NCBI GenBank assembly: GCA_028289065.1
Contig: JAQGHA010000016.1
Location: forward strand, 77,460-141,459
Direction: 5' to 3'
Length of the DNA: 64,000 nt
Origin: Candidatus Saccharimonadota bacterium
GTDB lineage: Bacteria; Patescibacteriota; Saccharimonadia; Saccharimonadales; Saccharimonadaceae
Shown: piece after piece, positions 10,518-44,629 of the stretch
How positions within the stretch are numbered: the first letter of the stretch is position 1
How the letters are laid out: every line of letters starts with the position of its first letter
Translations under genes and position numbers: made by a program
Notes under the pieces: model-generated
Told to the model about the DNA's origin: nothing
The model's database searches: none
What the model saw: only the letters and a program-made list of their open reading frames with translations

Positions 10518-10546
10518 TTGACTTTATTGCTATTATTTGCTATAAT
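10518..10546 (+). promoter_or_regulatory. Near-consensus sigma70 promoter of GC-rich unit U1
   Basis: TTGACT-17-TATAAT with TG extension. Confidence 0.8.
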
Positions 10547-10611
10547 ATAGTTTAACGACTTTATACAAGGAAATTCCTTGGATTGCTACACCCGAATAGA
10601 GAGGCAATGTC

Positions 10612-11250
10612 GTGGCACATACCGAAACACTATCCAACGAGGAGAAAATACTTCTCCGAGACGAAATGGGCGTTGTGGCAAACCTCGTCAGCAACGAGCT
10701 GGTCAGACGGATGCGAGCCGGGGATGATCCCAGCTTCAGCCCCAACCTCATCAACGAGGCGACCTCCTACGTCATGGGCTACGGAAGAATCTACGACGTG
10801 TCCAGTATCTTCGGACACGTGGAGAACAACCCGTACTTCTGGCCACAAGAGGTCCTCACGGTTAACATCATCTGTGATGTTGCTGAGATGGCTGACCGCG
10901 TTTCGGCCGAGCGCCTTCTAGCGCTTCGGTCCGTAGCGAACATCGCCGCGCGGTTTAACCAGTTCTTCCTCGATGAGGAAGGTTCTGGTTACGGCGGTAA
11001 TCCGTCCGATCGGCAAATGCTGATCGATACGGTGCTCTACCTCGTCGTTAAAGAGACCATCCCGACTCGTTTCATAATCGGGCTAGTACTCGATGTTGCA
11101 GGGAAGTTCTCCTTCTCCAGCGGGTACGAACGCACGAACGTCGCTGCAATCGTGCAGCGCATGGTGGACGAACACTCGGACATCATCATTCAGCGCCGGC
11201 TCGAGAGCATCAATGAGCTGCTCTCGTCGCTCGCTGAAGCGGCCAACTAA
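10612..11250 (+). CDS. GC-rich orphan protein U1 (212 aa)
   Basis: GTG start after GAGAGG; codons mostly C/G-ending; no family recognised. Confidence 0.75.
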   Translation: MAHTETLSNEEKILLRDEMGVVANLVSNELVRRMRAGDDPSFSPNLINEATSYVMGYGRIYDVSSIFGHVENNPYFWPQEVLTVNIICDVAEMADRVSAERLLALRSVANIAARFNQFFLDEEGSGYGGNPSDRQMLIDTVLYLVVKETIPTRFIIGLVLDVAGKFSFSSGYERTNVAAIVQRMVDEHSDIIIQRRLESINELLSSLAEAAN

Positions 11251-11311
11251 CCGCCCACTCTCGTGGGGCTCGCCAAGTTTCGACTTGGTTGAGCTCCACG
11301 GCAGGGGCGGT
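11250..11311 (+). terminator. Long imperfect GC-rich hairpin directly after U1 stop
   Basis: ACCGCCC/GGGCGGT, CGTGGGGCTC/GAGCTCCACG, CCAAG/CTTGG. Confidence 0.7.
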
Positions 11312-11487
11312 ACTTTAATTTCGGGGCATATTGTAATCTCACCCCCGATGTGCTATACTAGATTCACTGTTTCAGAGAGGGCAATCGATACTCAGACTAT
11401 AGTAGTCCATCCGTAAAGCCTCTCAACCTTGTTATCAATTTAGTAATGAATACATAAATTTCTTTAAGAAAAGGAGAAAAAATATAT

Positions 11488-13746
11488 ATGGGTCAACAAA
11501 GACTCTCAACCCCACAAGGCGATGACGCCTCGAAACAACCGCGTAACCAGCCGCGACCAAAATCAAATAATACTGTTCTTGCAAACACTCAAACCCGTAG
11601 GGGAGAAGTGTTCCGAGCTCAACGTCGTACCAGTGACGACGTAAACGCTCGTGCCTCACAACACGTTATTAATATTCCGGTTAACAAAAACGTCTTTAAC
11701 GGTTACGGTGGCCGCCAATTTAGCGTTGCTGACTTTAAAAAGCAACCTCGCACTTCTGGCCCTAAGCTTCGCGTTATCCCACTCGGTGGGCTAGGCGAAA
11801 TGGGTATTGGTAAAAACATGATGGCAATCGAATACGATAATGACATCATTGTTATCGACATGGGCTTCTTATTCCCAGGTGCTGATTACCCAGGTATTAA
11901 CTACATTGTGCCTGACGTGAGCTACCTCATCGAAAACAAGCATAAAATTCGGGCAATCGTATTTACCCACGGTCACCTGGACCACATTGGTGCCGTTCGC
12001 CACCTTATTCACCAAATTCCAGCCCCTGTCTACGGTTCAAAGTTTACTTTGGCTATGGTTCAAAAGAACATGGAAGAAGCGACCAGCGGATACGAGCCGG
12101 TTTATAACATCCTCGACCCTGAAGCCCACGAACGTGCTCAAATTGGCGACAGTTTTAGTATCGAACTTGTTCGAGTAAACCACTCAATCCCAGACGCTAC
12201 CGCGGTTGTTATCCGTACGCCACTTGGTGTATTAGTTGATACCGGTGACTGGCGTTTCGAAGATGCACCAGTAGACGGTAAAAAGTTCGACCTCGAACGT
12301 TTGACTGAAATCTCTGCTAAAGAAGGCATCCTGATGCTTATGAACGAATCAACCAACTGTGAATCTGAAGGTTCACATACCCACGGTGAGTTCGATATCA
12401 AAGAGAGCATGGGCCAGGTTATGGAAAAGCACTCAAGCAGCCGACTTATCATCAGTTGTTTCAGTAGCCAAATCCACCGTATGCAACTTATTCTTGATGA
12501 AGCCAAAAAGCACAATCGTAAGGTTGCCTTCGCTGGTTACAGCATGATCCAAAACGTTGAAGTAGCCCTTCGTACTGGTACGATTACCGTTCCTAAAGAC
12601 GTGATTGTGAAGATGGAAGACATTATTAAAATGCCTGACGAAAAAGTCACCATTGTTTGTACTGGTTCACAAGGTGAATTTAGCGCCGTCCTTAACCGTA
12701 TGGCTAGTGGTTCACACAAGTTCATCAAAATTAAAAACAGCGACATTATCGTCTTTAGCTCAAATGCTATTCCTGGTAATGAAAAGTACGTTACTCGTAC
12801 CGTTGATGGTTTGATGCGTGAAGGTAGTGAAGTTGTTCAAAACGGCAAAACCCACCTTACAGGCATTGGCCCGCTACACCTTTCAGGTCACGGGTACTAC
12901 GATGACCACGTAAAGCTTATTAATGCCTTGAACCCTAAATACTACCTGCCAATCCACGGTGAATTCCACATGTTGGCCCACAACGCCGTTCTTGCGGAAC
13001 GCGAATGTGGCATTAAACGCGACAACATCTTTGTTTGTGACAGTGGTGACGTAATTGAAATCACCTCTGACAAAGCTCGTAAAGCCGGCCGCGTACCAGT
13101 TGGTGGTGTTATGTACGATGACTCTGGAGCGATTGTTTCAGAAGTAGTCCTTAAAGACCGTATCCACATGGCCAGCGAAGGTATGTTTGTCGTGGTGCTG
13201 ACTGTCGCTAAGGGTAACGGCCGCTTACTTACCAGCCCTGACATCATTAGCCGTGGGTTCATTTACCTGCGCGATAGTGAAGAGCTCATGGGTATCATCC
13301 GCCAATACTTGAAGCAAAAAGTTGCTCGCACTTTCAGCGGCCGTCGGGTTGACCTGGACGTCGTGAAGAAGGAAATTAAAGACGAATTAACACACGTACT
13401 GTATGACCAAACTCGTCGCACTCCAATTGTGATTCCTGTGATTAACGAAATTGGTGGCGGTGGCAAGCCTCAACACGAAGGTGGTGGCCAAGGTGAAAAC
13501 CGTGATAACCGTGGCGACAACAATGGCCGTCCGAACAACAACCGTAACCAAGGTGGTCAAAACCGTGGTCCTCGGCCAAGCTTCGGTGGCCAAAGTGCTG
13601 CACCCGATAACGGTCCAATGCAACCTGACACTCGTCCGCCAGAACCTCGTTACGAGCGCCCAGCGCCACAAACGTTTCCTGCGCCCGTCGTTCCAGACAT
13701 TGAAACTGTCGAACCTAAAACACACGTCGACACTCGCGGTTACTAA
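11488..13746 (+). CDS. rnj: Ribonuclease J, paralog 2, with long low-complexity N- and C-terminal extensions
   Basis: PLGGLGEMGIGKNM, THGHLDH, TGDW, NESTN, TGSQGE, HLSGH, PIHGE. Confidence 0.95.
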   Translation: MGQQRLSTPQGDDASKQPRNQPRPKSNNTVLANTQTRRGEVFRAQRRTSDDVNARASQHVINIPVNKNVFNGYGGRQFSVADFKKQPRTSGPKLRVIPLGGLGEMGIGKNMMAIEYDNDIIVIDMGFLFPGADYPGINYIVPDVSYLIENKHKIRAIVFTHGHLDHIGAVRHLIHQIPAPVYGSKFTLAMVQKNMEEATSGYEPVYNILDPEAHERAQIGDSFSIELVRVNHSIPDATAVVIRTPLGVLVDTGDWRFEDAPVDGKKFDLERLTEISAKEGILMLMNESTNCESEGSHTHGEFDIKESMGQVMEKHSSSRLIISCFSSQIHRMQLILDEAKKHNRKVAFAGYSMIQNVEVALRTGTITVPKDVIVKMEDIIKMPDEKVTIVCTGSQGEFSAVLNRMASGSHKFIKIKNSDIIVFSSNAIPGNEKYVTRTVDGLMREGSEVVQNGKTHLTGIGPLHLSGHGYYDDHVKLINALNPKYYLPIHGEFHMLAHNAVLAERECGIKRDNIFVCDSGDVIEITSDKARKAGRVPVGGVMYDDSGAIVSEVVLKDRIHMASEGMFVVVLTVAKGNGRLLTSPDIISRGFIYLRDSEELMGIIRQYLKQKVARTFSGRRVDLDVVKKEIKDELTHVLYDQTRRTPIVIPVINEIGGGGKPQHEGGGQGENRDNRGDNNGRPNNNRNQGGQNRGPRPSFGGQSAAPDNGPMQPDTRPPEPRYERPAPQTFPAPVVPDIETVEPKTHVDTRGY

Positions 13747-13757
13747 TACTATCGCTT

Positions 13758-13830
13758 GAAATGAAAAGGGCTCCGCACTTGCGGAGTCCCATTTCATTTC
13801 TGAGAGGGGACTCGACGCCAAGCGCGGAGC
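13758..13830. terminator. Overlapping hairpins terminating rnj (+) and U2 (-)
   Basis: GAAATGAAA-AGGGCTCCGC/GCGGAGTCCC-ATTTCATTTC on +; alternative 61-nt hairpin starting right after the U2 stop on -. Confidence 0.75.
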
Positions 13831-14280
13831 TTAGTGGTTTGTAGGTATCTCGCCAGGAAACCTAGATTGAACCGAAGTGATTTCCTTCACGACACCATCG
13901 ATGAGAATGAAATCCTCCTCTGGGTCGAGGTGGTTACGAAGGCCGATTTGGATGTTTAGCTTCGGCTTTAGCGTCCTCCCGTGTAGCCACAAGAAGGCAT
14001 TCGTGTGGCAAAACTCCATTACGTGCTTGGACTTTTCGAGAGGAAGCGGATACATGTTGTCCGGTGGCGCATCGCGCCAATACTCCGCTTCGTCGGGGCT
14101 TAGGTAGCCAGCCTCGAGGGCAATACGCACTAGGTTGAACGTTCCTTCAACCGGGTGTAGTACTGTCAATCGAAACCGGTCGTTGACCTTTAGCCGGTAT
14201 AGCTGTTTACCTTCCGGAAATAATTTACTCGTGAATTCTGCCTCGAACTGGACTGTTGAGAGGGTCATCGCCCTCACCAC
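13831..14280 (-). CDS. Moderately GC-rich orphan protein U2 (~145-149 aa)
   Basis: ORF with TTGGCG-17-TATACT promoter and GAAAGGTG/GAGG SD candidates. Confidence 0.7.
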   Translation of the reverse strand: MVRAMTLSTVQFEAEFTSKLFPEGKQLYRLKVNDRFRLTVLHPVEGTFNLVRIALEAGYLSPDEAEYWRDAPPDNMYPLPLEKSKHVMEFCHTNAFLWLHGRTLKPKLNIQIGLRNHLDPEEDFILIDGVVKEITSVQSRFPGEIPTNH

Positions 14281-14410
14281 CTTTCGATTGGGTTAAACGA
14301 TTGCCCATAGTATACCGCCACCCCTTAAATTCGCCAAACATAAGCCTCTTGCAAAATGTGGTAAATTTTGCTATAATATACGCTATAAGATATAGGCATA
14401 ACCACCTATA

Positions 14411-16684
14411 ATGAATAAACAGATGGCAAAAAAGAAAAAACGCAGCTCAGCTAAAAAAAAGGTAGTTAACACCTCACCTCAACACTCATTACCAAGCGGT
14501 TTTTGGTCGCAGGTAGGGGCATTATTCTTGATTGCCTTTTCATTACTGTTAATTCTTGGTTGGTTTGGCCTCGGTGGCCCAGTATTAGACTGGTTATACA
14601 TGGCCACTATGGACACCATTGGCTATGCCGTGTTTGTGGTACCAATTCTATTTATTTACGTGGCAGTTGAAATTTTTAGGGCTGAAGATAACCGCCTGCC
14701 ATTTATTATGAAATTCGCCGTGGCGCTTTCATTGGTCTGGTTCGCCGGGTTATTTGGGCTTCTTAAAAACGCTGATGGAAAAACCACTGGTGGTTTCGTA
14801 GGGGAGCTAGCTAATAGTGGCATGATGCTACTAGTGAATGCAGGTGTTGCGGCGTTCGTATATATTCTGCTGATTATTATTACGACTTTATTTATTATTC
14901 GCGTTTCTCCAATCACTATTATTAAGAAGGTATGGGAACTGACTCGTCGCGATACCAAAGAGCAAGAAGACAACGTTAAAGTCATGCGTAACGCCGCCGC
15001 CATCGATACTCCTAAGGGTCCAATGGTCGACTTTAAGCTTAATGCTGGTGTACCAATGCTTGGTGCTGAAGAAACGATCGATCGAAAGAACCCGCACCTT
15101 AACACGCTTAAAAACAGCGTCGTAAAAGATAAAGCGGCTGAAGACCGTTCAGCTTTAGTGACCGTTAGCGACCCTAACTGGAAAGCTCCAAGTGTTGATT
15201 TACTTGAGAAGAAGCAATCGCCAGCCGACCCAGGTGACGTGCAGCAAAATGCTCAAACTATTAAAGATACCTTGGCTGAGTTTAATATCCACGTTGAAAT
15301 GGAAGGCGCTAACATTGGCCCTAAGGTCACACAATATACACTGCGTCCGCCAAGTGGTGTGAAGCTCACAAAAATTACTCAGCTCGAAACGAATATCGCT
15401 TTAAACCTAGCTGCTCAAAGTTTGCGTATGGAAGCGCCAATCCCTGGCCAAAAAGCGGTTGGTATTGAAGTGCCAAACCGTAAAGCTGCCGATGTGCGTT
15501 TGCACTCAATTATTACCAGTAAGGCCTGGACATCAACCACCGAACCATTGCCATTCGCAATTGGTAAAGATATTGCCGGCCAAGCCGTGATAGGTGAGTT
15601 GAATAAGATGCCCCACCTTCTTATTGCCGGTCAAACTGGTTCAGGTAAGTCCGTCATGATTAACACCTTGCTTTCCAGTTTGCTGTACCACAACAGCCCA
15701 AGTGAAATGAAGCTGATTTTGGTTGACCCTAAGCAAGTGGAAATGGCCCCTTACGAGGACATTCCACACCTTATTACCCCAGTTATTACCGAACCTGAAA
15801 AAACAATTAGCGCTTTGAAATGGGCTGTTAACGAGATGGAGCGCCGCTACAAGTTATTGGCTGAACACAAAGTACGTGACATTAAAACCTATAACGATAT
15901 GATTCGAAATAGCAAAAAAACTATTACGGTAACGGATGACGATGGCCATGACCAACAACACGAAAACGGCGCTATGCCATACATTGTAATTGTGATCGAC
16001 GAGTTAGCTGACTTGATGATGGTTGCCGCCCGCGACGTCGAAGCATTGATTGTCCGCTTGGCTCAAAAAGCCCGTGCCGTTGGTGTGCACCTAGTGCTAG
16101 CGACGCAGCGCCCATCGGTAGACGTTATTACCGGTCTTATTAAAGCCAACGTACCGGCCCGTATTGCCTTTACTGTTGCTTCGCAAATTGACTCTCGAAC
16201 CATTCTCGACCAAGTTGGTGCTGAGAAGCTGCTTGGCCAAGGTGACATGTTGCTGCTTACTCCATCTATGAGCAAGCCGAAGCGTATCCAGGGTGCTTGG
16301 GTGACCGATGAAGAAGTGATGAAAATTACCGACCACCTCCGCCAACAATCACCACCACAATACAACGATGAAGTTGTTAGCCAACCGGTTCAATTGAACG
16401 GCAAGGGTGGGGTAGTGATGGACTTTGATAACAACCACGACGGTAACGACGACCTTTATAAAGATGCCGTTCGCGTCGTGATTGATAGCGGTAAAGCCAG
16501 CGCCAGCTTATTACAGCGCCGCTTGCGTGTAGGCTATGCCCGTGCAGCCCGCCTGGTTGAAGAAATGGAAGAACAAGGCATCATTGGCCCTGCTGATGGC
16601 GCAAGGCCACGAGACGTGCTTGTATCAAGCTTGGATGAGGTATTTGGAAGCTCTACTGCTCCGGATGAAGAAGATCTTGGATAG
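14411..16684 (+). CDS. ftsK: DNA translocase FtsK/SpoIIIE
   Basis: N-terminal TM helices, AGQTGSGKS, IVIDELADLM, LATQRPS, gamma domain LLQRRLRVGYARAARL. Confidence 0.97.
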   Translation: MNKQMAKKKKRSSAKKKVVNTSPQHSLPSGFWSQVGALFLIAFSLLLILGWFGLGGPVLDWLYMATMDTIGYAVFVVPILFIYVAVEIFRAEDNRLPFIMKFAVALSLVWFAGLFGLLKNADGKTTGGFVGELANSGMMLLVNAGVAAFVYILLIIITTLFIIRVSPITIIKKVWELTRRDTKEQEDNVKVMRNAAAIDTPKGPMVDFKLNAGVPMLGAEETIDRKNPHLNTLKNSVVKDKAAEDRSALVTVSDPNWKAPSVDLLEKKQSPADPGDVQQNAQTIKDTLAEFNIHVEMEGANIGPKVTQYTLRPPSGVKLTKITQLETNIALNLAAQSLRMEAPIPGQKAVGIEVPNRKAADVRLHSIITSKAWTSTTEPLPFAIGKDIAGQAVIGELNKMPHLLIAGQTGSGKSVMINTLLSSLLYHNSPSEMKLILVDPKQVEMAPYEDIPHLITPVITEPEKTISALKWAVNEMERRYKLLAEHKVRDIKTYNDMIRNSKKTITVTDDDGHDQQHENGAMPYIVIVIDELADLMMVAARDVEALIVRLAQKARAVGVHLVLATQRPSVDVITGLIKANVPARIAFTVASQIDSRTILDQVGAEKLLGQGDMLLLTPSMSKPKRIQGAWVTDEEVMKITDHLRQQSPPQYNDEVVSQPVQLNGKGGVVMDFDNNHDGNDDLYKDAVRVVIDSGKASASLLQRRLRVGYARAARLVEEMEEQGIIGPADGARPRDVLVSSLDEVFGSSTAPDEEDLG

Positions 16685-16695
16685 AGAGTGAGATA

Positions 16696-16728
16696 AAAAT
16701 AACCCTAGGTATAAACTGGGGTTATTTT
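16696..16728. terminator. Bidirectional terminator
   Basis: AAAATAACCC...GGGTTATTTT, same arm sequence as 2579-2608. Confidence 0.8.
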
Positions 16729-16747
16729 AAATACGGCTAACTGATAA

Positions 16748-17407
16748 TTATATTGATTGTTTTGAAGCTACGATAGGCAGTTTTAATTTCTCTGCTTTAC
16801 GGGCGGTTCTTTCACGGTCTTGTCCGTAATAGAGTACTCCAGCCAACGCAGCAGACCCCAAGATAATAGGGAAAATAATAGTACGACCTACTTCTGATGT
16901 GTTACTAATAGCTTCGAGAGTCTCATGATTAGCCCAAATTGATTGCGGAAAAGAGTCGGCGGCAGATCCAATTAACGTTAATACACCTAATCCTGATGCG
17001 GCAAGACTTGCTTTGATAGAACTCTTACCAATATTATTGCGAAGTAGTTCATTCTGAGTGACGGGGTTTTGAGCCATATCGGCGTAATGCTTCAATTCGT
17101 GTTGAAGGCTTTTTTGCATCAGTCTCTCATTATTTCTGGATACTATTCTAGCGTGTTCGATGCCGGGGTTGTAGCCGCCTGAATCGCCAGCGCTCATTTT
17201 TGAGCCAAACTCGATAGAAAGTGAGCTGCTGTCTGCCGGTGCGCCTACTGCACTAAGGGTTTCTCTCAGTGCAGGGTAGTCAATATGAAATTTTTCTCCC
17301 TGCTTGAGAGTGTTTTTTACGGAAAGATTAACACTGATCGTAGGGTCTGTGTCGAGCGGAATTTCTTGGGATGAACTGGGGTTAATCATGTTTATTTTTT
17401 CGCTCAT
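16748..17407 (-). CDS. Putative membrane zinc metallopeptidase (HExxH)
   Basis: GGYNP...LQHELKH motif followed by two hydrophobic helices and ERTAR. Confidence 0.5.
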   Translation of the reverse strand: MSEKINMINPSSSQEIPLDTDPTISVNLSVKNTLKQGEKFHIDYPALRETLSAVGAPADSSSLSIEFGSKMSAGDSGGYNPGIEHARIVSRNNERLMQKSLQHELKHYADMAQNPVTQNELLRNNIGKSSIKASLAASGLGVLTLIGSAADSFPQSIWANHETLEAISNTSEVGRTIIFPIILGSAALAGVLYYGQDRERTARKAEKLKLPIVASKQSI

Positions 17408-17633
17408 TTGTTAATAATAACATTAGCATATTAAAGTGATTATGTCAATGTTAGTGAAAGCGATGTGTTAATTAATTACAATCTCATAATAGCTTGTCAT
17501 ACTAAGACATGCTCCATTTGCTCTAACAGGGGAGATAGTGTATAATTACCACTGTTAATAACTCAAGCTCATAAATTACATTCAGTAACGAATGAGTATC
17601 CGGTACACATCGGATTCCAAAAGGAGAAAAATA

Positions 17634-17996: not shown

Positions 17997-18018
17997 GAAG
18001 AGGGAATAGGGAGTTTAT

Positions 18019-18713: not shown

Positions 18714-18719
18714 TTGGCC

Positions 18720-35527: not shown

Positions 35528-36445
35528 TTACGATTCTGATTCGCTGTGGTATTTTTCGTAGACTTCTTTAAGGTGTGCGTCGGTGACGTGGGTATAAATT
35601 TGGGTAGTTGAGATATCGCTGTGGCCGAGCATAGTTTGAACGCTTCGTAAATCGGCGCCATTCATTAATAAGTCGGTAGCAAAGCTGTGACGCATAGTGT
35701 GCGGGCTGACGTGCTTGGTAATGCCAGCCAGACGAGCGTATTTATTGATAGCCCGTTGGATACTTCGAGCCGACAGCCGCCTAAAATCGCCGCTCGTGGT
35801 CGGTTCGACGTTACGGCTATAGCCAATAAACAGCGGAGCTAAGCTGTCCTGGCGCATTTCTAGGTACTGGTTGACCCAATCGGCGGCAGTTTGGCTTATA
35901 AACACTGGACGGTCCTTCTGGCCCTTACCACGCACCATAAATTCACGCCGTTTGGTGTTAATGTGGTCACGGTTGAGGTTTACCAGTTCGGAAACACGCA
36001 GGCCGCTGGAAAACAACAGTTCAATGATGGCTCGGTCGCGTAAACCAGCTTCACTGGAAACATCTATTTGTTCAAATAAGCGTTGCACTTCATCGTAGTG
36101 TAAAAAGGTTACCTGTTTACGAGCGGTTTTGGGTAATTCAATTTTATCCGGGCTTAAAGAGGGGATATCCCGCTTCGACAAGTACTTCAAGAAACCACGC
36201 AAGGCAATCAGGTGGTAGGCCTGGGTAATCATGGCCAAGGTTTCGCCGCGTTCGTTTTCGTGGCGGTTTAGCCATAGCCGAAATTTACGAACTAATTCAC
36301 TATCGATATCGGCAACTTTAATATCACCAGAAAATTCAATGAACCGGTTAAGATAGAATTCATAATTCTCGGCGGTTTTCGGCATGCGACCACCCTCAAC
36401 CTCCAGGTGTTCAATAAAGTCGAGAACGTAATCGGACATATACAT
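35528..36445 (-). CDS. XerC/XerD-family tyrosine recombinase
   Basis: LRDRAIIELLFSSGLRVSEL, GKGQKDR, PHTMRHSFAT, LGHSDISTTQIY; XerC vs XerD not resolvable. Confidence 0.93.
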   Translation of the reverse strand: MYMSDYVLDFIEHLEVEGGRMPKTAENYEFYLNRFIEFSGDIKVADIDSELVRKFRLWLNRHENERGETLAMITQAYHLIALRGFLKYLSKRDIPSLSPDKIELPKTARKQVTFLHYDEVQRLFEQIDVSSEAGLRDRAIIELLFSSGLRVSELVNLNRDHINTKRREFMVRGKGQKDRPVFISQTAADWVNQYLEMRQDSLAPLFIGYSRNVEPTTSGDFRRLSARSIQRAINKYARLAGITKHVSPHTMRHSFATDLLMNGADLRSVQTMLGHSDISTTQIYTHVTDAHLKEVYEKYHSESES

Positions 36446-37280: not shown

Positions 37281-37315
37281 CCTAAGTATATAATCAAAAA
37301 TTCAGAGGAGACCTT

Positions 37316-37819
37316 ATGAGCCATATCGAACGAACTCTAATACTTTTTAAACCTGACGCCGTGCAACGTGGTGTTGTTGGCGAAATCCTAACCCGTTTTG
37401 AACGGGTTGGCCTTAAAATTGTCGGTACAAAAATGATCGCACCCGACCGCGAACAATTCTATAAACACTATGAAGAAATTGGCCAAGTTATAACTCGTCG
37501 TGGCGAAGACGTTTTTAATAACGTCCTCGAAAACATGGCTGATGGCCCAATTATTGCTATGGTACTCGAAGGTATTGAAGCGGTCGAATTGGTCCGTAAG
37601 TTGGTCGGTTCAACTGAACCAAAATCATCAGCCCCTGGAACCATCCGTGGCGACTTCTCGCACATGAGCTATGGCTATGGTGATGCTCAAAACAAGGGTA
37701 TTCCTAACCTTATTCACGCCTCTGGTGATAAGGACGATGCTGAAAAGGAAATTCCACACTGGTTCAACGAAGATGAGCTATACGATTACAGTGTATTGAA
37801 CGAAAAGTTTACTCGATAG
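37316..37819 (+). CDS. ndk: Nucleoside diphosphate kinase
   Basis: KPDAVQRG, PGTIRGDF, NLIHASG. Confidence 0.96.
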   Translation: MSHIERTLILFKPDAVQRGVVGEILTRFERVGLKIVGTKMIAPDREQFYKHYEEIGQVITRRGEDVFNNVLENMADGPIIAMVLEGIEAVELVRKLVGSTEPKSSAPGTIRGDFSHMSYGYGDAQNKGIPNLIHASGDKDDAEKEIPHWFNEDELYDYSVLNEKFTR

Positions 37820-37837
37820 TACAACAGTCTTAAAAAA

Positions 37838-37869
37838 GAACTAGCCCCGGCAATTGCCGGGGCTAGTTC
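37838..37869. terminator. Perfect 32-bp palindrome / terminator between ndk and U3
   Basis: GAACTAGCCCCGGCAA|TTGCCGGGGCTAGTTC; T-run follows on - strand. Confidence 0.85.
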
Positions 37870-37884
37870 GTACTAGAGGCGTGC

Positions 37885-38151
37885 TTAGCGCACGAGCGGG
37901 TTGAAACCGTGCGCGATGACGAGCTGGTTGAAGATAGGGCTAGCAGCGTGGGCGACGCGAAGGTCGTGGATCGCTGCATCGACGCGGGCTAGCATGAAGG
38001 CGGGCAGCTGTTCCATCATGTCGAAGGCGTCGAAGTTGTCATCGTCATCTTCCTCGTAGTAGCTGTCGAGTTCGGCACTGACAGCCGCGTCGATGAGGTG
38101 CATCTCATGCACTTCTTGATCGATGATCTTGCGGTGTTGCTGGTTACCCAT
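37885..38151 (-). CDS. GC-rich acidic orphan protein U3 (88 aa)
   Basis: TTGACT-17-TATAAT promoter, SD GGAG, C/G-ending codons. Confidence 0.75.
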   Translation of the reverse strand: MGNQQHRKIIDQEVHEMHLIDAAVSAELDSYYEEDDDDNFDAFDMMEQLPAFMLARVDAAIHDLRVAHAASPIFNQLVIAHGFNPLVR

Positions 38152-38239
38152 TTCAATTCTCCAATGTAGGTGAAAAGTACGAACTTGAATATTATACCAA
38201 ATTTACACGAAAAAGTCAATGTGTTAAAATAGACATTAC

Positions 38240-38316
38240 GCCTCGGTAGCTCAACTGGATAGAGCAGATCCGTCCTAAGGATAAGGTTGTAGGTTCGACT
38301 CCTGCCCGGGGTACCA
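38240..38316 (+). tRNA. tRNA-Arg(CCT)
   Basis: Cloverleaf, TTCGA T-loop, anticodon loop GT-CCT-AA, encoded CCA. Confidence 0.92.
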
Positions 38317-38382
38317 TGATTTTATGATAGTATATATACATGCAAAGCGTAAGCAAAATATCTTTAAAAATCGGTACTTACA

Positions 38383-38916
38383 ATGATTAAGAAAAAAGAC
38401 GATTCTCCAAAACGTGATTTCGAAGGCCAACGGCCGGACGAAGAGCTGTTATTTGTCTTCCGTCGTCACCTAATTGCCATGCGTAAAGGTTTTTACCTGT
38501 TGCTTGGTTCATTAGTTATTACGGCCATCCCGCCGCTCATCTGGCAAGATAATCTCGAACTATTTCTCTTACCGGTTTTCGGTTTCGCACTTGGTTTAAT
38601 CCTGTTTTTTTACCACTACACAATGTGGTATTTCACAATTTATGTTGTTACTAATCAGCGTATTCGGCAAATCACCCAAAAGGGTTTTTTCGGCAAAGAT
38701 GTCGTCGAGTTGCGGCTGTCTAAAATTCAGAACATAAGCTATAATATACCAGGGTTCTCTGGAGAGATTTTTGGTTATGGAACCATAGTTATCCAGACGT
38801 TCGTGGGGGATCTTGTTATCCGTAATGTTGAACATCCCGAAAAAACGTATAACAAATTGCAAGACGCCGTTAGTACGGTAGTTGAAACGCAAGGAGAGCA
38901 TGAAGAAGTTATCTAA
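38383..38916 (+). CDS. Membrane protein with bacterial PH domain
   Basis: Two TM helices then YVVTNQRI...IQNISY...FGYGTIVI. Confidence 0.8.
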   Translation: MIKKKDDSPKRDFEGQRPDEELLFVFRRHLIAMRKGFYLLLGSLVITAIPPLIWQDNLELFLLPVFGFALGLILFFYHYTMWYFTIYVVTNQRIRQITQKGFFGKDVVELRLSKIQNISYNIPGFSGEIFGYGTIVIQTFVGDLVIRNVEHPEKTYNKLQDAVSTVVETQGEHEEVI

Positions 38917-39970
38917 GTTACGGTTGAAGAAAAAGCAACCTGAAGAGCCAGCTGGTCGGATTACTACCGACACTTTGGCCGAGCACCGTCAGCAAGTTTT
39001 AGCTGGTGGTCGAAAATTTAAATACCCGGTTCAATACGCCCGCCACAAGTTGGTGGTGAATGCAATAATCATTATTATTGCGACGGTTATTATCCTTTTG
39101 GGTGTAGGCTACTGGTTACTGTACCAAGCTCAAAACACCAGTGACTTTATGTACCGCGTGACAAAAGTTGTGCCGGTACCAGTTGCTGAAGTTGATGGCC
39201 AGCAAGTTCGCTACAGTGAATACCTTATGAAGTTCCGCAGTAACCTGCATTACTTGGTTGAAAAAGAACAAGTTGATGTTACTACCGAGGACGGCCAACG
39301 CCAAGTCGAGTTTATTAAAGACCAAGCCATGCACGACGCTATTGCCGATGCCTTTGCGAACAAAATTGCCAAGGACAAAGACCTCAAGGTAACTGATGCC
39401 GAGCTTGAGACATACCTAAAGCAGCAACGACAATCCAGCGATGGCAATGAAGTTAGTGAATCAACCTATAACGCCGTTATTCTTGATTATTATGGCTGGT
39501 CACCAGATGAATACCAACAAGCTATGAAGACCAAGCTACTTCGCCAAAAGGTAGCCTACGCCGTTGACCAAGATGCCGAGACGGTTTCGAAAAAGGTGGA
39601 AGCAAGTATCGCCGCTGGAACAGTAGACTTAAATGTGGTGGCGACAACCATTAACGTCGATGAACAAAAGTCAGTTATATTTTGGCCAGCAGCTTGGGTA
39701 CCGCTTGATAACCAAGACGGTGGCTTAGCCGCTGCTGCCTTGAAACTCGAAATTGGCCAAGTATCTAAAGCTGTTAAAACAACCTCTGGTGATGGCTATT
39801 ACTACGTAAAACTGGTTGATAAAAACGAAACTCAAGTTCGCTACGAATACCTGCAAGTTCCACTGAGTGCTTTTGATGACCTGCTAGCAGATGCTGAAAC
39901 TGACAAAAAGACGACTCAATACATTAGTATTCCAGTTATTGACGAGCAAACCGAACCAACCAAACAATAG
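38900..39970 (+). CDS. SurA/PrsA-like membrane-anchored chaperone
   Basis: TM helix, PVAEVDG, GQVSKAVKT...GYYYVK parvulin-like end; SD AAGGAG before 38900. Confidence 0.7.
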   Translation: MKKLSKLRLKKKQPEEPAGRITTDTLAEHRQQVLAGGRKFKYPVQYARHKLVVNAIIIIIATVIILLGVGYWLLYQAQNTSDFMYRVTKVVPVPVAEVDGQQVRYSEYLMKFRSNLHYLVEKEQVDVTTEDGQRQVEFIKDQAMHDAIADAFANKIAKDKDLKVTDAELETYLKQQRQSSDGNEVSESTYNAVILDYYGWSPDEYQQAMKTKLLRQKVAYAVDQDAETVSKKVEASIAAGTVDLNVVATTINVDEQKSVIFWPAAWVPLDNQDGGLAAAALKLEIGQVSKAVKTTSGDGYYYVKLVDKNETQVRYEYLQVPLSAFDDLLADAETDKKTTQYISIPVIDEQTEPTKQ

Positions 39971-39983
39971 GGGGCACAACTAT

Positions 39984-40583
39984 ATGTTTAGCGTACCAGC
40001 ACTAAATTACGATTACGATGCACTGAGCGATTATATTAGCGCAGATATTATGCAGCTCCACCACGACAAGCATCACCAAGGCTACGTGGATAAATTAAAC
40101 GCGGCGGTTGAAAAATACCCTGAACTTCAAGGCAGGGCAGTAGAAGAATTACTTGTCGGTTTAAATTCTTTACCCGATGACATTCGTACCACCGTTCGTA
40201 ATAACGGTGGTGGCCACTATAACCATTGTCTGTTTTGGGTGTGGATGTCACCACAAGGTGGAGGGCAGCCATCTGGCCCGCTTTTAGAAGCTATTTTGCA
40301 GAGGTATGAGACGTTTGAGACATTCCAAGAAGAATTTGCGGCTAAAGCTATCAGTGTCTTTGGAAGTGGCTGGGTTTGGCTGCAGCCAAATATGGATATA
40401 ATCACCACACCAAACCAGGATTCATTATTAAGTTCCGGTGAACCAGCGCCATTACTAGGTCTAGACGTTTGGGAACACGCTTACTATTTGGACTATAAAA
40501 ACAAACGCCCCGAGTATATTAAAGCTTGGTGGAATGTCGTCAACTGGCCAGTGGTTGAAGCCCGTTTCGACGCCACGAACTAA
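39984..40583 (+). CDS. sodA: Superoxide dismutase, probably Mn-type
   Basis: HHDKHH, NGGGHYNH, DVWEHAYY. Confidence 0.95.
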   Translation: MFSVPALNYDYDALSDYISADIMQLHHDKHHQGYVDKLNAAVEKYPELQGRAVEELLVGLNSLPDDIRTTVRNNGGGHYNHCLFWVWMSPQGGGQPSGPLLEAILQRYETFETFQEEFAAKAISVFGSGWVWLQPNMDIITTPNQDSLLSSGEPAPLLGLDVWEHAYYLDYKNKRPEYIKAWWNVVNWPVVEARFDATN

Positions 40584-40601
40584 CTATTTTTTGGCATGAA
40601 G

Positions 40602-40657
40602 AAGCCCCACGGGGCATCCTTGACTCTTCGAAAAGAGAAGGATGCCCGTTGGGGCTT
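40602..40657. terminator. Long imperfect hairpin after U4 stop
   Basis: AAGCCCCA/TGGGGCTT, GGGCATCCTT/AAGGATGCCC, CTCTT/AAGAG. Confidence 0.75.
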
Positions 40658-40664
40658 TCGTCGT

Positions 40665-40976
40665 CTACATGTTGACGTAGTCGGGGAGACGGGTGTACTC
40701 GTCAATGCCGGCAGCGAAGTCGGCGACCGCGAGCCAGTACAGCATGACGAGATCGTCCGGGTAGGAAGCGTCGACTTCGTCGACGCCTGAACAGGGTTGG
40801 TCGTTCATGCGAAAGACCAGCTCGTCGGCGTTGACCAGGATGAAGTCGTACTGACCCTCCGCCTCGGAGTCCGGCTCGCACAGCTTGATGACGGCCCGAT
40901 GGCCATCCTCGAAGTGGTACGTGTCGACGTCATTCTCTGACGTAAAGGATTTGACGACGGGTGTTATGTCTGACAT
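40665..40976 (-). CDS. GC-rich acidic orphan protein U4 (103 aa)
   Basis: SD GAGGAGG, hairpin leader, TTTACG-17-TATTCT promoter. Confidence 0.8.
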   Translation of the reverse strand: MSDITPVVKSFTSENDVDTYHFEDGHRAVIKLCEPDSEAEGQYDFILVNADELVFRMNDQPCSGVDEVDASYPDDLVMLYWLAVADFAAGIDEYTRLPDYVNM

Positions 40977-41213
40977 ACAGCCTCCTCGGTCACTGTAGAA
41001 ACCTACAGTACGTCCACCATGGACGATAAAGAAAAGAATACCATAATTATGAATATTCGTAAATGCTCTTATGAGCGGTAAAAATTACGTTCATAACTGT
41101 CAACTATAAATATTCCACCATTTACATTTTGTAAAAAAAATTGTATAATCTTTTTTATGTCACATGGTGTGACGTGTAGCTGATAGGGCTACTGGTGGGA
41201 AGAGGGTAGTAAC

Positions 41214-41906
41214 ATGAGTACCAACACCGAAACGATCGAGGACTTCGTTCCCCACATCTACAAGTCCGAAGACGGCACCAACAGGTTCACCGTCGAGGTC
41301 GAACCAAACTACGGCATCGGCAACGACATCCTCGTCAAGCGTCTGCTCGGCTACGTGCAGGACGGGGTCGTGCTCGCCATCGTCGACTTCATCCTCGACG
41401 ACGACAGCATCGACGACGACGGCAAGAACCTGACGTTCGCGGCGTACTACATCGATGGCGTGCCTCACCCCGAGTACTTCGAGAACCTCTCGGTGATCGA
41501 CGTCGCTCAGATGTTGAACCAGGAGGTTTTCGTTGACCTCATCGGCCTCAAGCGGGACGTCCAGTTGTGGCGGGTCGTGGACATGCGTGAGAGTCGGACC
41601 GGACACGACTACTTCGTCGCGGTTCCCAAGGACGGCGACAGTGTTCGTTTCGAGTTGGCGCCGTACGTCTGGGTCGAGCCGGACATGCCTCCCACGGTGC
41701 TGAACTACAACGAGCTGCTCACGCTCGTGACGGATCCGCCCTTCGGACCCACTCTCTGGTACGTCGATCACCTCCTCGATCAGGACGAGGTGATGACCTG
41801 GGACGAGTTCTACTCGACGGGTCACCGTCTGATGATCGAGGACTACTCACGATCCAGCGACGAGAAGGCCTCCGAGGAGTTGGTATCAGAAGCCAGCGCC
41901 GAGTGA
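41214..41906 (+). CDS. GC-rich acidic orphan protein U5 (230 aa)
   Basis: 24 of first 29 non-Met codons end in G/C; TTTACA-17-TATAAT promoter. Confidence 0.82.
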   Translation: MSTNTETIEDFVPHIYKSEDGTNRFTVEVEPNYGIGNDILVKRLLGYVQDGVVLAIVDFILDDDSIDDDGKNLTFAAYYIDGVPHPEYFENLSVIDVAQMLNQEVFVDLIGLKRDVQLWRVVDMRESRTGHDYFVAVPKDGDSVRFELAPYVWVEPDMPPTVLNYNELLTLVTDPPFGPTLWYVDHLLDQDEVMTWDEFYSTGHRLMIEDYSRSSDEKASEELVSEASAE

Positions 41907-41928
41907 GCTATCGCTAGCACCATGCGAT

Positions 41929-41985
41929 TCGCGTGGGGCCGATCTATCAATCCCGAAAGGGAGAGATTAGATCGGTCCTACGCGA
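41929..41985 (+). terminator. Long hairpin after U5
   Basis: 18-bp stem TCGCGTGGGGCCGATCTA/TAGATCGGTCCTACGCGA plus TCCC-gaaa-GGGA. Confidence 0.75.
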
Positions 41986-42017
41986 GCAACAACACCTTAG
42001 ACACCGAAAAGGTGTTT

Positions 42018-42344
42018 TTATTTTTGTAAAAATATTTCTAATAAGGCCTGAGCGGCAATCTTTTGTTCTGGTTTGTCTGCGTTAGCGCTCAGTAACTCTA
42101 AACCAACTAAGATATCTGCTTTGATAGCAGCTGTCTTGCCGCCTTTAAAGTAGAGATAGAGCTGCTCGGGCTCATCTGGAAAAGCGGCTGCATGTTGCTG
42201 TTGGGTAGTTCGCAAAATTTGTAGTTTTTCAGCCGCAGAAGGGTTTATTCCTATAGTGTCGAGCGCATCAATAGCCGTGTCAAGTTGTATCTTTCCCTTT
42301 AGCTGTAGTTCGTCATCAGATAAAAATTCCATAAAACCTACCAT
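42018..42344 (-). CDS. Hypothetical protein (~104-108 aa)
   Basis: ORF; likelier start 42332, 7 nt after TG-t-TATGGT. Confidence 0.65.
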   Translation of the reverse strand: MVGFMEFLSDDELQLKGKIQLDTAIDALDTIGINPSAAEKLQILRTTQQQHAAAFPDEPEQLYLYFKGGKTAAIKADILVGLELLSANADKPEQKIAAQALLEIFLQK

Positions 42345-42430
42345 AACACATTCGTATAGTATTGAGTGTAGGGAGTATTATTTGACAAATACTCAATAAA
42401 TGTATAATACCCCTAAACGAAAGGTGCGTT

Positions 42431-42868
42431 ATGTTTGAGAATGGTTTTGGTAAAAAAATAGAGGCGCATGAACTTAATGAGCAGGAAAAGGCGGAGTATG
42501 ATTTACTGCATCCACAAGAACAAGCTCCAGTAGGCTATGCTGCTGTGTACGTAAGAAATTATGCTACTGGTGGAGATTTCCTTATACCTAACAAACATAA
42601 CGAATACTCACAATCGGAAACCTACGTAGTCAAAAAGCGGGGATTCACACCACATTTCGAGGTAACCGTAGCCAATGAAGACATAATTCCAATCACCACT
42701 CGAACAATTACAAAAACACTCTTTTCTTCAAATGCACGATTTAAGGCAGCGACCCTACAGGCTATTCATGAGTCATTAGCAGACTTGGCCGCCTATGTAG
42801 ATGCCCAGAACGTACCGGCTGATTTAGAGCACACTTACCGCGATACGACTCGCTTTATGGAACGCTAG
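42431..42868 (+). CDS. Hypothetical protein (145 aa)
   Basis: TG-TATAAT promoter and SD GAAAGG. Confidence 0.7.
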   Translation: MFENGFGKKIEAHELNEQEKAEYDLLHPQEQAPVGYAAVYVRNYATGGDFLIPNKHNEYSQSETYVVKKRGFTPHFEVTVANEDIIPITTRTITKTLFSSNARFKAATLQAIHESLADLAAYVDAQNVPADLEHTYRDTTRFMER

Positions 42869-42883
42869 TCCCTAAAAGTAAAG

Positions 42884-42939
42884 AGGCTCCGCGATGTCAA
42901 CGCAGAATCTCTTTACTTCTTGCGGATATCGCGGAGCCT
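42884..42939. terminator. Long hairpin after U6
   Basis: AGGCTCCGCGATGTC/GATATCGCGGAGCCT outer stem. Confidence 0.75.
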
Positions 42940-42951
42940 GAGCTCTTATGA

Positions 42952-43398
42952 CTAATCGGAGTTCGGAATGATCCGATGGTTGCTGGCTGCCAACATCCAG
43001 GAATCAAGCTTCTTGACGAGCTCGAGGTACTCTTTGGTGTTCCAGTACTCGTTTGCTAGCGAGTAAACGATGTCCCGGGCGCTTTTAAGCTTCAAGAATT
43101 CCGAATTACTCTCGTAGTCGCCAGAGGGATACGCCAGTCGACCTTCGCAGGCCAGCAGCCAGGCGCTGTAGTAGGTAACGGCTCGCTGGATTTCCAGACG
43201 ACGAGTCGAAACTCGTTTGAACATGATCCTGCGAAGTTCGACGATGTCGGCCGCAACATCTGTGGCCAATTTGGCGGCAGCGGTGAAGTTGCCAACCTCG
43301 GTCTGGTGAGCGCATTTTTGAAGATCGCGCTCGATGCGTGCTGTAATGCCTGCTTGAAGTTCGGTGAGCCTTTGCGACGCACTGCTTTCTTTTGCCAT
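42952..43398 (-). CDS. GC-enriched orphan protein U6 (148 aa)
   Basis: TGG-TATAAT, small leader hairpins, SD GGAGG; predicted all-helical. Confidence 0.75.
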   Translation of the reverse strand: MAKESSASQRLTELQAGITARIERDLQKCAHQTEVGNFTAAAKLATDVAADIVELRRIMFKRVSTRRLEIQRAVTYYSAWLLACEGRLAYPSGDYESNSEFLKLKSARDIVYSLANEYWNTKEYLELVKKLDSWMLAASNHRIIPNSD

Positions 43399-43488
43399 GT
43401 CATGCCTCCGGTGGAGTAGTCAAAGAGCGCTCGGATGAGCAGGCTTCATTATACCATAGGAAATAATAAATAGTGAATTTCGTCAATA

Positions 43489-44001
43489 CTAATTTATATG
43501 AGGTTTTGAAATATCAACTTCGATATCGAACCCAAATGATCTATGATCAAGGGCATATTCTTCGCTACCAGCCCTTACGAGTGATTGTCGTGCTTGTTGG
43601 AAACTGATAGGCAATTCAGCAAATTGTTCGGGGTACTCATCGATGGTGCCGTCAGGGGTATCATGAAAGAATTTTACTGCTTGCTCGCCGAACACCCTTT
43701 TTACAATATCAAGCGAATATTCTGACTCTATATGCCCATTAATACTTTCGACTCCTATTTTCTTGGACTCTACGACTAATGCGCGAACCAGCCGTTCGCC
43801 AATACCATGCCCTCGTAGGCCTTTAATTGGCTCAACCCACAAAGTATTAGGCTCAATAACAGTCGGTGCTTCGTCTTTTATCTCGCCACCAAAGGTTGCA
43901 AGGTTGCCTATAGATAAGAACAGCAGTCGCTTGCCTCGGCTCGTGGCCAATTCAGCCCGAATAGGGTCGTAGGAGTAATGAAAATATTCATTGATAATCA
44001 T
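43489..44001 (-). CDS. GNAT family acetyltransferase
   Basis: LWVEP...LRGHGIGERLV acetyl-CoA motif A; TTGACT-17-TATTAT promoter 8 nt before ATG. Confidence 0.65.
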   Translation of the reverse strand: MIINEYFHYSYDPIRAELATSRGKRLLFLSIGNLATFGGEIKDEAPTVIEPNTLWVEPIKGLRGHGIGERLVRALVVESKKIGVESINGHIESEYSLDIVKRVFGEQAVKFFHDTPDGTIDEYPEQFAELPISFQQARQSLVRAGSEEYALDHRSFGFDIEVDISKPHIN

Positions 44002-44096
44002 GAAACGAAATAATACCACAAAAGTGTTATTAAGTCAATAAGTGCTTGGCGGGTCGTGTCTGAAAAGGGTGGGGCAATTTCGTTCAAAATTAAAGA

Positions 44097-44150
44097 CGCC
44101 CCTCGCGGAGCGTCCTCAATTCCCGAGGGAAGAGGAACTCGCAAGGAGCG
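44097..44150 (-). terminator. Long bulged hairpin after U7
   Basis: About 24 pairable positions with small bulges, 20 nt after stop. Confidence 0.65.
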
Positions 44151-44170
44151 TGTGTTGAACGCGGTCCTGC

Positions 44171-44509
44171 CTAGGGAAAGAAGGGCACGTCGATGGTCGG
44201 GTTGGCGATGCGATCCTGCTCATGTAGCATGGCTAAGTTCTCCTCGACCGCACTGCGTAACCGCGCCGGCATATCAGGTACTTGGTCAGTGCTGACGAAG
44301 TGGATGTTCTCCGGGTTGTTGTCTCGGCTGATTGTCCGCAACGTGCGGTTCTTGTCACGGTAGTACATCCTGAAATGATCGTGTGCGACGTTCAGAGAGC
44401 TCACTATGCGCGGTGGAACCCACCAAGAACGCCTGTAGATGAACATCTCCCTTTCAAGCAGTTCGATGCTGCAAGTGACGGTTGTGGAATAAGAAATAAG
44501 GATTTCCAT
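44171..44509 (-). CDS. GC-enriched orphan protein U7 (112 aa)
   Basis: TTGACT-17-TATAAT promoter, SD AGGAGG. Confidence 0.75.
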   Translation of the reverse strand: MEILISYSTTVTCSIELLEREMFIYRRSWWVPPRIVSSLNVAHDHFRMYYRDKNRTLRTISRDNNPENIHFVSTDQVPDMPARLRSAVEENLAMLHEQDRIANPTIDVPFFP

Positions 44510-44629
44510 GATTCCTCCTGTAGGATCTGTAGACGGGTGGGAACTTCAACTACCTTCTGGATGAGGGTGATGATTACATATTATAACAAAAAATAGACTA
44601 AAAGTCAATCTAGTCTATTAATGATATCT

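Follow-up and report, generated by a model that had tools for sequence, protein, structure and literature searches.

The DNA considered here is a stretch of 64,000 nucleotides from a Candidatus Saccharimonadota genome (the window, C10:77460-141459), taken from a 163-kb contig of an assembly that comprises 935 kb in 17 contigs at 44% GC; genomes of relatives in the same order span 0.6-1.3 Mb. An earlier note on the window had singled out seven orphan open reading frames (ORFs), U1 to U7, as dispersed, self-contained expression units in which a GC-rich coding sequence is preceded by a promoter and a leader and closely followed by a hairpin, and all seven ORFs are present at the coordinates claimed. 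In what follows, C1-C14 designate contigs of the assembly, G001-G018 genomes of sister species and L0xx contigs of relatives, and GC1, GC2 and GC3 denote GC content at the three codon positions.

U1 is encoded on the forward strand, where a TTGACT-17-TATAAT promoter sequence (10518-10546) and a leader reaching to 10611, with the hairpin CAAGGAAATTCCTTG and a Shine-Dalgarno sequence, precede an ORF of 212 aa (10612..11250; isoelectric point, pI, 4.7) and a bulged GC-rich 3' hairpin (11251..11312) with homologous hairpins in G003 and G009. U2 and U3 are encoded on the reverse strand. The U2 ORF (13831..14280, 149 aa) has a leader and a weaker putative promoter with a TATACT -10 box (14281..14350, approximate limits), and the inner part of its 3' hairpin (13770..13830) is the terminator it has in common with the convergent RNase J gene. 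The U3 ORF (37885..38151, 88 aa, pI 4.5) is preceded by a leader and promoter region (38152..38219, with TTGACT-17-TATAAT at 38191-38219) that adjoins tRNA-Arg (38240-38316), and followed by a palindromic terminator (37838..37869) common to the convergent ndk gene. The palindrome is perfect, as the earlier note had it, but its length was overstated: instead of 32 bp it measures 32 nt, that is, 14 bp and a 4-nt loop.

The other four units, together with three AT-rich orphan ORFs (42018-42344, reverse strand; 42431-42868, forward; 43489-44019, reverse), make up a hypervariable island between sodA and tRNA-Asp (40655..44619). U4 (40665..40976, reverse strand, 103 aa, pI 4.1) ends in a two-tier hairpin, GCCCCnnnGGGCATCC...GGATGCCCnnnGGGGC (40593..40664), and is separated from the divergent U5 by a control region (40977..41213) with a putative promoter and a leader in either direction, both leaders having a 5'-proximal hairpin bearing an AUGGU loop and a second hairpin. 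The U5 ORF (41214..41906, forward strand, 230 aa, pI 4.1) encodes a predicted alpha/beta protein, and its 3' untranslated region (UTR; 41907..42025) holds a CACCAUG box, a long covarying hairpin (~41925-41985) and then a separate small hairpin with a T-run (41999-42025). It is this small hairpin, not the big one, that looks like the terminator, and the long hairpin would therefore be a distinct covarying 3' UTR element. U6 (42952..43398, reverse strand, 148 aa) encodes a protein predicted, with low confidence, to be all-helical (AlphaFold on the single protein, predicted local distance difference test, pLDDT, 60); its leader and TTCACT-18-TATAAT promoter sequence occupy 43399..43477 and its 3' hairpin (42872..42941) is common to the convergent AT-rich ORF 42431-42868. 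U7 (44171..44509, reverse strand, 112 aa) has a 3' hairpin at 44087..44164 and a leader and promoter region (44510..44608, with TTGACT-17-TATAAT at 44580-44608) that abuts tRNA-Asp (44630-44707). The U4-U7 portion of the arrangement is seen again on independent metagenome contigs, which excludes contamination for that island; for U1-U3 contamination is unlikely, since they are located between core genes.

The anatomy described in the earlier note was largely borne out. The promoter sequences claimed for U1, U3 and U7 are present, U5 has a promoter-like site of the form TTTACA-17-TATAAT, and five of the seven promoter-like sites match at least 10 of the 12 consensus positions. All seven units have leaders of 35-70 nt with a GGAGG or GAGG Shine-Dalgarno-like sequence and small hairpins, and in all seven a GC-rich stem follows 0-22 nt past the stop codon, its folding energy over 110 nt lying between -37 and -56 kcal/mol. 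The predicted promoters, leaders and 3' hairpins support the proposal that the units are self-contained and monocistronic, and the compositional shift does follow the predicted transcript and not the promoter. The U3-U5 proteins are as acidic as had been stated (pI 4.1-4.5). The units do not, however, constitute a sequence family, as a search for paralogy among GC3-rich ORFs detected none.

The same architecture is commoner in GC-rich ORFs across the genome. Defining the GC3-rich class by a GC3 of at least 0.60 and an ORF length of at least 80 aa yields ~45 ORFs genome-wide, or ~5% of genes (5.8%). The median 3' folding energy, computed over 80 nt, is -31 kcal/mol for GC3-rich ORFs (n=44) versus -13.6 kcal/mol for the rest (Mann-Whitney p=2e-20). 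Among 22 intergenic near-consensus promoters with a gene on their downstream side, 7 drive GC3-rich ORFs by position (binomial p ~2e-4 given the share of such ORFs among genes), and among GC3-rich ORFs a Shine-Dalgarno sequence is found in 47% versus 29% (p=0.012). Several of the native genes that follow consensus promoters were observed to be leaderless, with 1-8 nt from the -10 box to the start codon (e.g. C9:4148, C10:83404, C10:80647 and C14:43942). Unlike these, the GC3-rich units have leaders of 30-70 nt with a Shine-Dalgarno sequence.

In terms of composition, the units have an overall GC content of 0.51-0.59, versus ~0.45, and GC3 values of 0.70, 0.61, 0.75, 0.81, 0.86, 0.64 and 0.70 for U1 to U7, set against a genome median of 0.396 (sd 0.087); the value for U5 is the genome maximum. 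The codon-position pattern (GC1 > GC2 << GC3), exemplified by U5 with GC1 0.61, GC2 0.32 and GC3 0.86, indicates that the unit ORFs are truly coding. At the other codon positions the deviation vanishes: GC3-rich genes have GC1 and GC2 of 0.554 and 0.390, versus 0.532 and 0.391 for native genes, their combined fraction of Gly, Ala, Arg and Pro is 0.248 versus 0.245, and GC2 across the units (0.27-0.42) is native-like. The GC excess is restricted to synonymous positions, and the amino-acid composition is native-like, not actinobacterial; long residence in a genome of 60-70% GC is expected to shift GC2 and amino-acid use as well, following the Muto-Osawa relation. GC3-rich ORFs prefer C or G in all codon families, including CAG, AAG and GAG, whereas in the ribosomal-protein cluster the preference for C is limited to NNY families and gives way to T or A in the others, and this difference argues that the GC3-rich usage is not the native translational optimum. 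The genome carries tRNA-Thr CGT, tRNA-Arg CCT and tRNA-Val GAC, which provide CNN and GNN anticodons for these codons.

The GC3-rich style (0.62-0.81) is also seen in a cluster resembling a type IV secretion system (T4SS; C6:130991-139523), assigned by eye from translations and comprising a ParA-like ATPase, a small membrane protein and proteins of 511-526 aa, and in a thymidylate synthase gene (C12:2128-2955); the style is therefore not limited to orphan ORFs. Two further loci, C3:13328-14791 and C1:126704-127921, encoding an LPXTG-like surface protein and an Ala-rich lipoprotein, are GC-rich with a GC2 of ~0.50 and actinobacteria-like amino-acid use. These two may be true host-derived transfers or mis-binned contig segments.

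The seven units are located in replaceable slots between core genes, three of these slots next to tRNA genes, and clean empty sites were found in sister species. The flanks are conserved as DNA (the ndk region, tRNA-Arg, the bPH/SurA/sodA block, tRNA-Asp, tRNA-Thr, both RNase J genes and the gene upstream of U1), the non-conserved intervals coincide exactly with the unit-bearing ones, and every slot varies within the genus. The U1 slot is empty, with 125-160 bp between the flanks, in G001, G013, G015 and G016; the same holds for the U2 slot (~170 bp) in G010, G011 and G018 and, in most sister species, for the U3 slot (40-130 bp); and the gap from sodA to tRNA-Asp ranges from ~60 bp to 11 kb. 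No DNA match to the island (40655..44619) was found in 30 relatives. A protein scan covering 40 species genomes of the genus and 300 genomes sampled across the order identified no homologs of the seven unit proteins, with the exception of a marginal U4 match in the G015 island, and ordinary vertically inherited homologs with normal GC3 were found in none of the relatives. The pattern extends beyond the window. When 10 sister genomes were checked for 18 further GC3-rich proteins, no protein turned up in 9 or more of them and 13 were missing from all; of 14 native proteins picked at random, 9 occurred in 9 or more (Fisher p ~7e-5). GC3-richness is tied to accessory status generally in this genome.

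Where a slot is occupied, sequence comparison points to the conservation of its frame. The closest species, G003 and G009 (RNase J genes ~83% identical at the DNA level), carry a unit of the same orientation in the U1 slot. The U1 promoter and leader (window 10533-10618) are ~84% identical to the G003 slot and the 3' hairpin is homologous, the similarity ending ~6 nt into the ORF and returning 6 nt past the stop codon. The three ORFs framed in this manner in the window, G003 and G009 differ in length (212, 122 and 111 aa), and BLASTP detected no significant similarity among them; a few short motifs in the same order, read by eye, hint at extreme divergence in place and not replacement. In its U3 slot, G003 keeps the hairpin and the leader's 5' end around an unrelated ORF of 56 aa, and in its U2 slot, where frame conservation is weaker and partial, an unrelated ORF of 153 aa has the same slot and orientation. 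The U4 hairpin is ~88% identical, as counted from the alignment, to a hairpin at the corresponding place in G003, and the U4 ORF has only weak positional relatives, in G003 (23% identity, pairwise E=2e-5) and G015 (E=0.004). A covariance model of this hairpin (R1) matches 16 of the 40 genus genomes, in several instances within the same island, with 1-6 matches per genome, some of which are one site read on both strands; three copies lie in the G003 island, and the U7 hairpin is a weak match (E=0.003). As far as these alignments indicate, the putative promoter, leader, first codons and hairpin are kept in sister genomes while the coding part is near or beyond recognition.

The U5 family offers the best view of how such a unit evolves. 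A full HMMER search of 1.84e9 representative proteins identified only five relatives (48, 41, 31, 31 and 32% identity), and the contigs encoding them have in common the TTTACA...TATAAT promoter sequence, a 5'-proximal hairpin (GUCAC-AUGGU-GUGAC), a second hairpin, a Shine-Dalgarno sequence and the ORF, followed on the 3' side by the CACCAUG box, the long hairpin and a separate small putative terminator with a U-run. Leader identity (0.57-0.89) exceeds the nucleotide identity of the coding sequences (0.54-0.66) in every pair and is independent of protein identity, and compensatory changes occur in all three hairpins, in both UTRs. Pairwise protein identity is 23-46%, and all six ORFs nevertheless have a GC3 of 0.74-0.86, with GC2 of 0.32-0.40 and flanks of 31-40% GC, which argues that the compositional anomaly is maintained and not decaying. 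In L046, a contig of a close relative, the adjacent genes for a 126-aa protein and a glycosyltransferase are 88% identical, as proteins, to those of the window, and the U5 homolog ~30%. L043 and L044 are ~0.9-kb contigs that carry two U5 variants from one sample and break at the same flanks, the pattern that would be expected of coexisting alleles at one locus in an assembly. AlphaFold prediction on the six sequences gave an alpha/beta fold (pLDDT 70.6; predicted template modeling score, pTM, 0.69).

Complementary segments were found at the two ends of U3 and U5. In U3, the 10-nt sequence AGUUCGUACU in the 5' UTR is complementary to the 3' UTR just before the terminator (38152-38190 with 37870-37884), and the complementarity is kept in the unrelated unit of G003. 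In U5, CAUGGUG in the loop of the 5' hairpin is complementary to CACCAUG 11 nt past the stop codon (41160-41175 with 41917-41925), and the family members retain this pairing, L046 by means of a single double change from U-A to A-U. These boxes could represent pairing of RNA ends or DNA inverted repeats. As a general feature of the units, pairing of the 5' and 3' UTRs was rejected on comparing own and cross duplex energies (p=0.08), and it is retained for U3 and U5 only. A different kind of likeness was observed at the ends of the proteins: the otherwise unrelated U1- and U5-family proteins have short acidic, Ala-rich, probably disordered C-terminal tails (…SEASAE, …EQAAEA, …ETPAA, …AEAAN, …QTAPA, …QVSAA; window 11220-11250 and 41860-41906; L031, L032 and L042-L046). 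As pure speculation, these could act as a degron or a secretion signal.

Since the anomaly persists while the proteins diverge, some force must keep GC3 high in this reduced, AT-leaning genome, be it selection on mRNA structure or stability, biased conversion or a mobile reservoir. The folding of the actual ORF sequences was compared with that of permutations of their own synonymous codons, which leave protein and codon counts fixed, over the first 300 nt. Mean folding z-scores were -1.49 for the seven units (p=0.014), -1.27 for 29 other GC3-rich ORFs (p=3e-6) and -0.99 for the U5 homologs (p=0.004), versus a non-significant -0.34 for 24 native genes (GC3-rich versus native, p=0.004). This folding excess, together with the 5'-proximal and 3' stem-loops, favors selection for highly structured messages, which we infer to be the leading explanation for GC3 maintenance, the advantage presumably being resistance to nucleases.

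Several lines of evidence bear on how the slots turn over. The 11-kb island of G009 consists of GC-rich and AT-rich blocks and includes a GC-rich M23 peptidase/FG-GAP protein (L012:4718-6214) and a large serine recombinase (L012:10530-12098; Resolvase, Recombinase and Zn_ribbon_recom domains) that directly adjoins tRNA-Asp, suggesting that at least part of the turnover is integrase-mediated. In the window, U7 is bracketed by a partial copy of the tRNA-Asp 3' end (CTTGGCGGGYCG...; 44045-44056) and by the tRNA itself (44628-44639); further partial copies lie at L011:3579-3608 and 4055-4084, L042 ~1672-1710 and L046 ~1700-1740, and similar repeats occur in the G003 island. These copies look like att-site scars left by serial integration. 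The tyrosine recombinase family PF00589 has only two hits in the genome, both outside the units (window 35528-36445 and contig C4). On C4, a phage-type tyrosine integrase (C4:26617-27117, in a 388-aa frame) was observed next to a tRNA-like sequence (C4:27240-27317).

The unit proteins are small, lineage-restricted, mostly acidic and cytoplasmic. Searches of Pfam, PHROG and PADLOC with these proteins and with the three neighboring orphan ORFs returned nothing significant, only sub-threshold noise such as a weak DUF5995 match for U6, and known anti-phage defense and anti-defense families were rejected on the same grounds. No match to the seven proteins was found by tblastn in 50,697 phage records. 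In a word-indexed search of 5.8e9 proteins, which for U5 overlooked homologs that full HMMER recovered, U1 and U5 each matched only themselves. The U5-family model found nothing better than E=0.1 in Foldseek searches of the PDB and BFVD, and a PDB profile search likewise had no match. No Rfam family was detected in any unit leader or hairpin, and searches for the U5 leader returned chance matches only (a 17-mer in genome and viral contigs, a 22-mer in metagenome contigs).

Taken together, these results lead us to favor, as the probable reading, that the units are long-resident, moron-like chromosomal accessory genes that diversify rapidly and whose GC3-rich, structured messages are actively maintained. 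It builds on the observed anatomy, accessory status, frame conservation, GC3 persistence and excess folding, and from these we infer expression, mRNA stability, a selective agent and a role for the proteins. The modules would give strongly transcribed and highly structured messages, with stem-loops at both ends and internal folding, and hence resistant to nucleases. Their proteins would be under diversifying or weak constraint, as for conflict or host-interface genes, and turnover would proceed in two ways, through homologous recombination at frames and flanks that are conserved and through insertion at tRNA-Asp by an integrase.

Several points weigh against this reading. The promoters, terminators and mRNA stability it invokes are predictions; GC3 persistence was followed in the U5 family, the sole one with enough homologs; and the folding excess is modest, at ~1-1.5 sd per gene and in the first 300 nt only. 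The hyperdivergence in place of U1-U3 is not distinguishable from replacement by unrelated ORFs. A search within the window found no repeated frames among its units, which leaves recombination between frames inside one genome unsupported, and no function was identified for any unit protein.

The main rival explanation is GC-biased gene conversion, acting at slots that are recombination hot-spots by way of natural transformation and conserved flanks, with promoters staying AT-rich by necessity. On this view, repair bias would push synonymous positions to G/C, and selection on the mRNA would play no part. A link between recombination and GC3 has been reported across bacteria (PMC4450053), and the hypervariability of the slots, the mosaic relation between frame and ORF, in which leader identity does not track protein identity, the two allelic U5 variants with common flanks in one sample (L043 and L044) and the accompaniment of GC3-rich status by accessory status all agree with such a process. 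Against it stand the AT-rich orphan ORFs in the same island and a GC2 that shows no increase despite nearly unconstrained protein evolution; in addition, conversion alone does not predict a folding excess over own-codon shuffles. The size of the effect, from a GC3 of 0.39 to 0.86, is also problematic, as the recombination effect on GC in bacteria is reportedly a few percent, typically far below this. We consider gene conversion unlikely to be the principal cause.

Ranked third, after structured-message selection and gene conversion, is a pool of GC3-rich Saccharibacteria mobile elements, of which the units would be cargo or remnants (morons) repeatedly inserted at tRNA sites, their composition reflecting the mutational regime of the element. 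Promoter and terminator of their own and a deviant GC content fit the structural definition of a moron (PMC3594210), U3 and U7 abut tRNA genes, a partial tRNA-Asp 3'-end repeat lies at 44045-44056 with similar ones in the G003 island, tRNA-Asp has a large serine recombinase next to it in the island of G009, and the T4SS-like cluster and the contig bearing thyA have the GC3-rich style. However, neither the units nor the neighboring orphan ORFs match phage families, no integrase lies in or beside the island of the window, and U1 and U2 are located between core genes without a nearby tRNA. Moreover, sister species keep the frames in the corresponding slots of the chromosome, which speaks for residence in place and not for repeated insertion, and we regard this origin as improbable.

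The earlier note itself had suggested that genes of host or phage were captured recently and came under native promoters, with the gradient of GC among the units reflecting age of acquisition. A GC3 of up to 0.86 and a choice of C- and G-ending codons that resembles high-GC organisms would fit capture from a high-GC actinobacterial host or its phages, and C3:13328-14791 and C1:126704-127921 do have an actinobacterial-like GC2 of ~0.50. The units, in contrast, have native-like GC2 (0.27-0.42) and amino-acid use, for U1 and U5 no homolog turned up beyond a narrow Saccharibacteria-like set (in the libraries of 5.8e9 and 1.84e9 proteins), no match was found in the phage collection searched, and the profile and structure searches turned up no host or phage relatives. 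The UTR frames co-evolve with the ORFs, and the proposed age gradient is contradicted by the U5 family, in which GC3 stays at 0.74-0.86 down to ~25-30% protein identity, with no amelioration. Recent capture is already largely refuted and has very little probability left. Least credible of all is that the units are nucleic acids, messages or DNA, delivered to and translated in the actinobacterial host, with codons, leaders and hairpins tuned to it: the host-like codon style, the protected and structured predicted mRNAs and the presence of T4SS-like genes in the genome support this circumstantially, but no evidence of transfer was found, no finding requires it, the T4SS-like genes, which are needed in the epibiont itself, have the same codon style, the genome has CNN and GNN anticodons for these codons (Thr CGT, Arg CCT, Val GAC), and the promoters are of native type.

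Returning to long-resident accessory genes with maintained messages, a wider and frankly doubtful extension can be put forward: that Saccharibacteria, and perhaps members of the Candidate Phyla Radiation widely, possess a discrete class of self-contained accessory genes whose GC3-rich codon dialect is their own and is kept by selection on the message while the proteins turn over almost freely. Such messages would be hyper-structured and nuclease-resistant, with a conserved stem-loop at both the 5' and the 3' end, and in some units these ends may pair. If true, the class would serve as a platform for expressing rapidly evolving proteins of the host interface or of conflict, and it would contradict the rule by which an anomalous composition is the mark of a recent horizontal transfer. 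Outliers in composition are commonly taken for such transfers, and the rule fails for an anomaly that is synonymous-only, persistent and accompanied by conserved UTR frames. The GC3-rich class makes up much of the flexible gene pool of this genome, and an account of it matters for understanding how ultra-small epibionts replenish the genes they use in host interaction or conflict; the conserved promoter, leader and hairpin frames are candidate strong expression parts for genetically tractable Saccharibacteria.

A description of this class was not found in the literature searched, including the main comparative Saccharibacteria genomics paper, and the units were therefore set against known systems that resemble them in part. 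Integron cassettes consist of a promoterless ORF and an attC site, are inserted in one orientation and lie beside intI and attI. The units are likewise small, mostly orphan ORFs closely trailed by an imperfect, bulged hairpin of ~55-60 nt, but they have their own promoters, mixed orientation and dispersed positions, and their hairpin stays with the slot when the ORF differs, whereas that of an integron travels with the cassette. The integron interpretation was rejected for these own promoters and slot-bound hairpins and because no integron integrase was found and no GTTRRRY core sites were seen by eye. In the framework of Lawrence and Ochman, atypical islets represent horizontal transfer followed by amelioration. 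Atypical GC3, orphan status, variable loci adjacent to tRNAs and empty sites in relatives are common to such islets and to the units. Unlike such islets, the units do not resemble a donor at every codon position or in amino-acid use, they have no homologs in a donor lineage, their relatives being confined to a few Saccharibacteria-like contigs, and their anomaly shows no decay, the six U5-family members having a GC3 of 0.74-0.86 at 23-46% identity.

A closer parallel in layout is found in phages. The promoter-plus-stem-loop (PeSL) cassettes described in the hyperplastic regions of T4-type phages (PMC2839356, PMC4122927) are, like the units, small orphan ORFs that lie singly between a strong sigma70-like promoter and a terminator of stem-loop type, clustered in variable regions between conserved blocks, with motifs that are conserved while ORFs are inserted, deleted or replaced; one type of hairpin likewise occurs three times in a single island of G003. 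The units differ from PeSL cassettes in that they reside on a cellular chromosome and not in a phage, in that their frames within the window are not repeats of each other and so do not form one repeated composite motif, and in that a private codon composition has not been reported for PeSL-flanked ORFs. Phage morons are defined by a promoter and terminator of their own and a deviant GC content (Juhala/Hendrix; PMC3594210). By sequence prediction, all seven units are likewise independent transcription units with their own promoter and factor-independent terminator; their GC content deviates from that of their neighbors (0.51-0.59 versus ~0.45; GC3 0.61-0.86 versus 0.40), their presence or absence differs between otherwise collinear relatives, and, as with morons, whose products are often conflict-related, most products are small and without known function. 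Morons lie within phages or prophages, however, whereas the units are flanked by chromosomal core genes (RNase J, ndk, sodA, tRNAs), with no phage genes or PHROG matches nearby. Furthermore, the deviation of the units is purely synonymous and is kept over deep divergence in place of being carried over from a donor, and their regulatory frames are more conserved than the ORFs they enclose.

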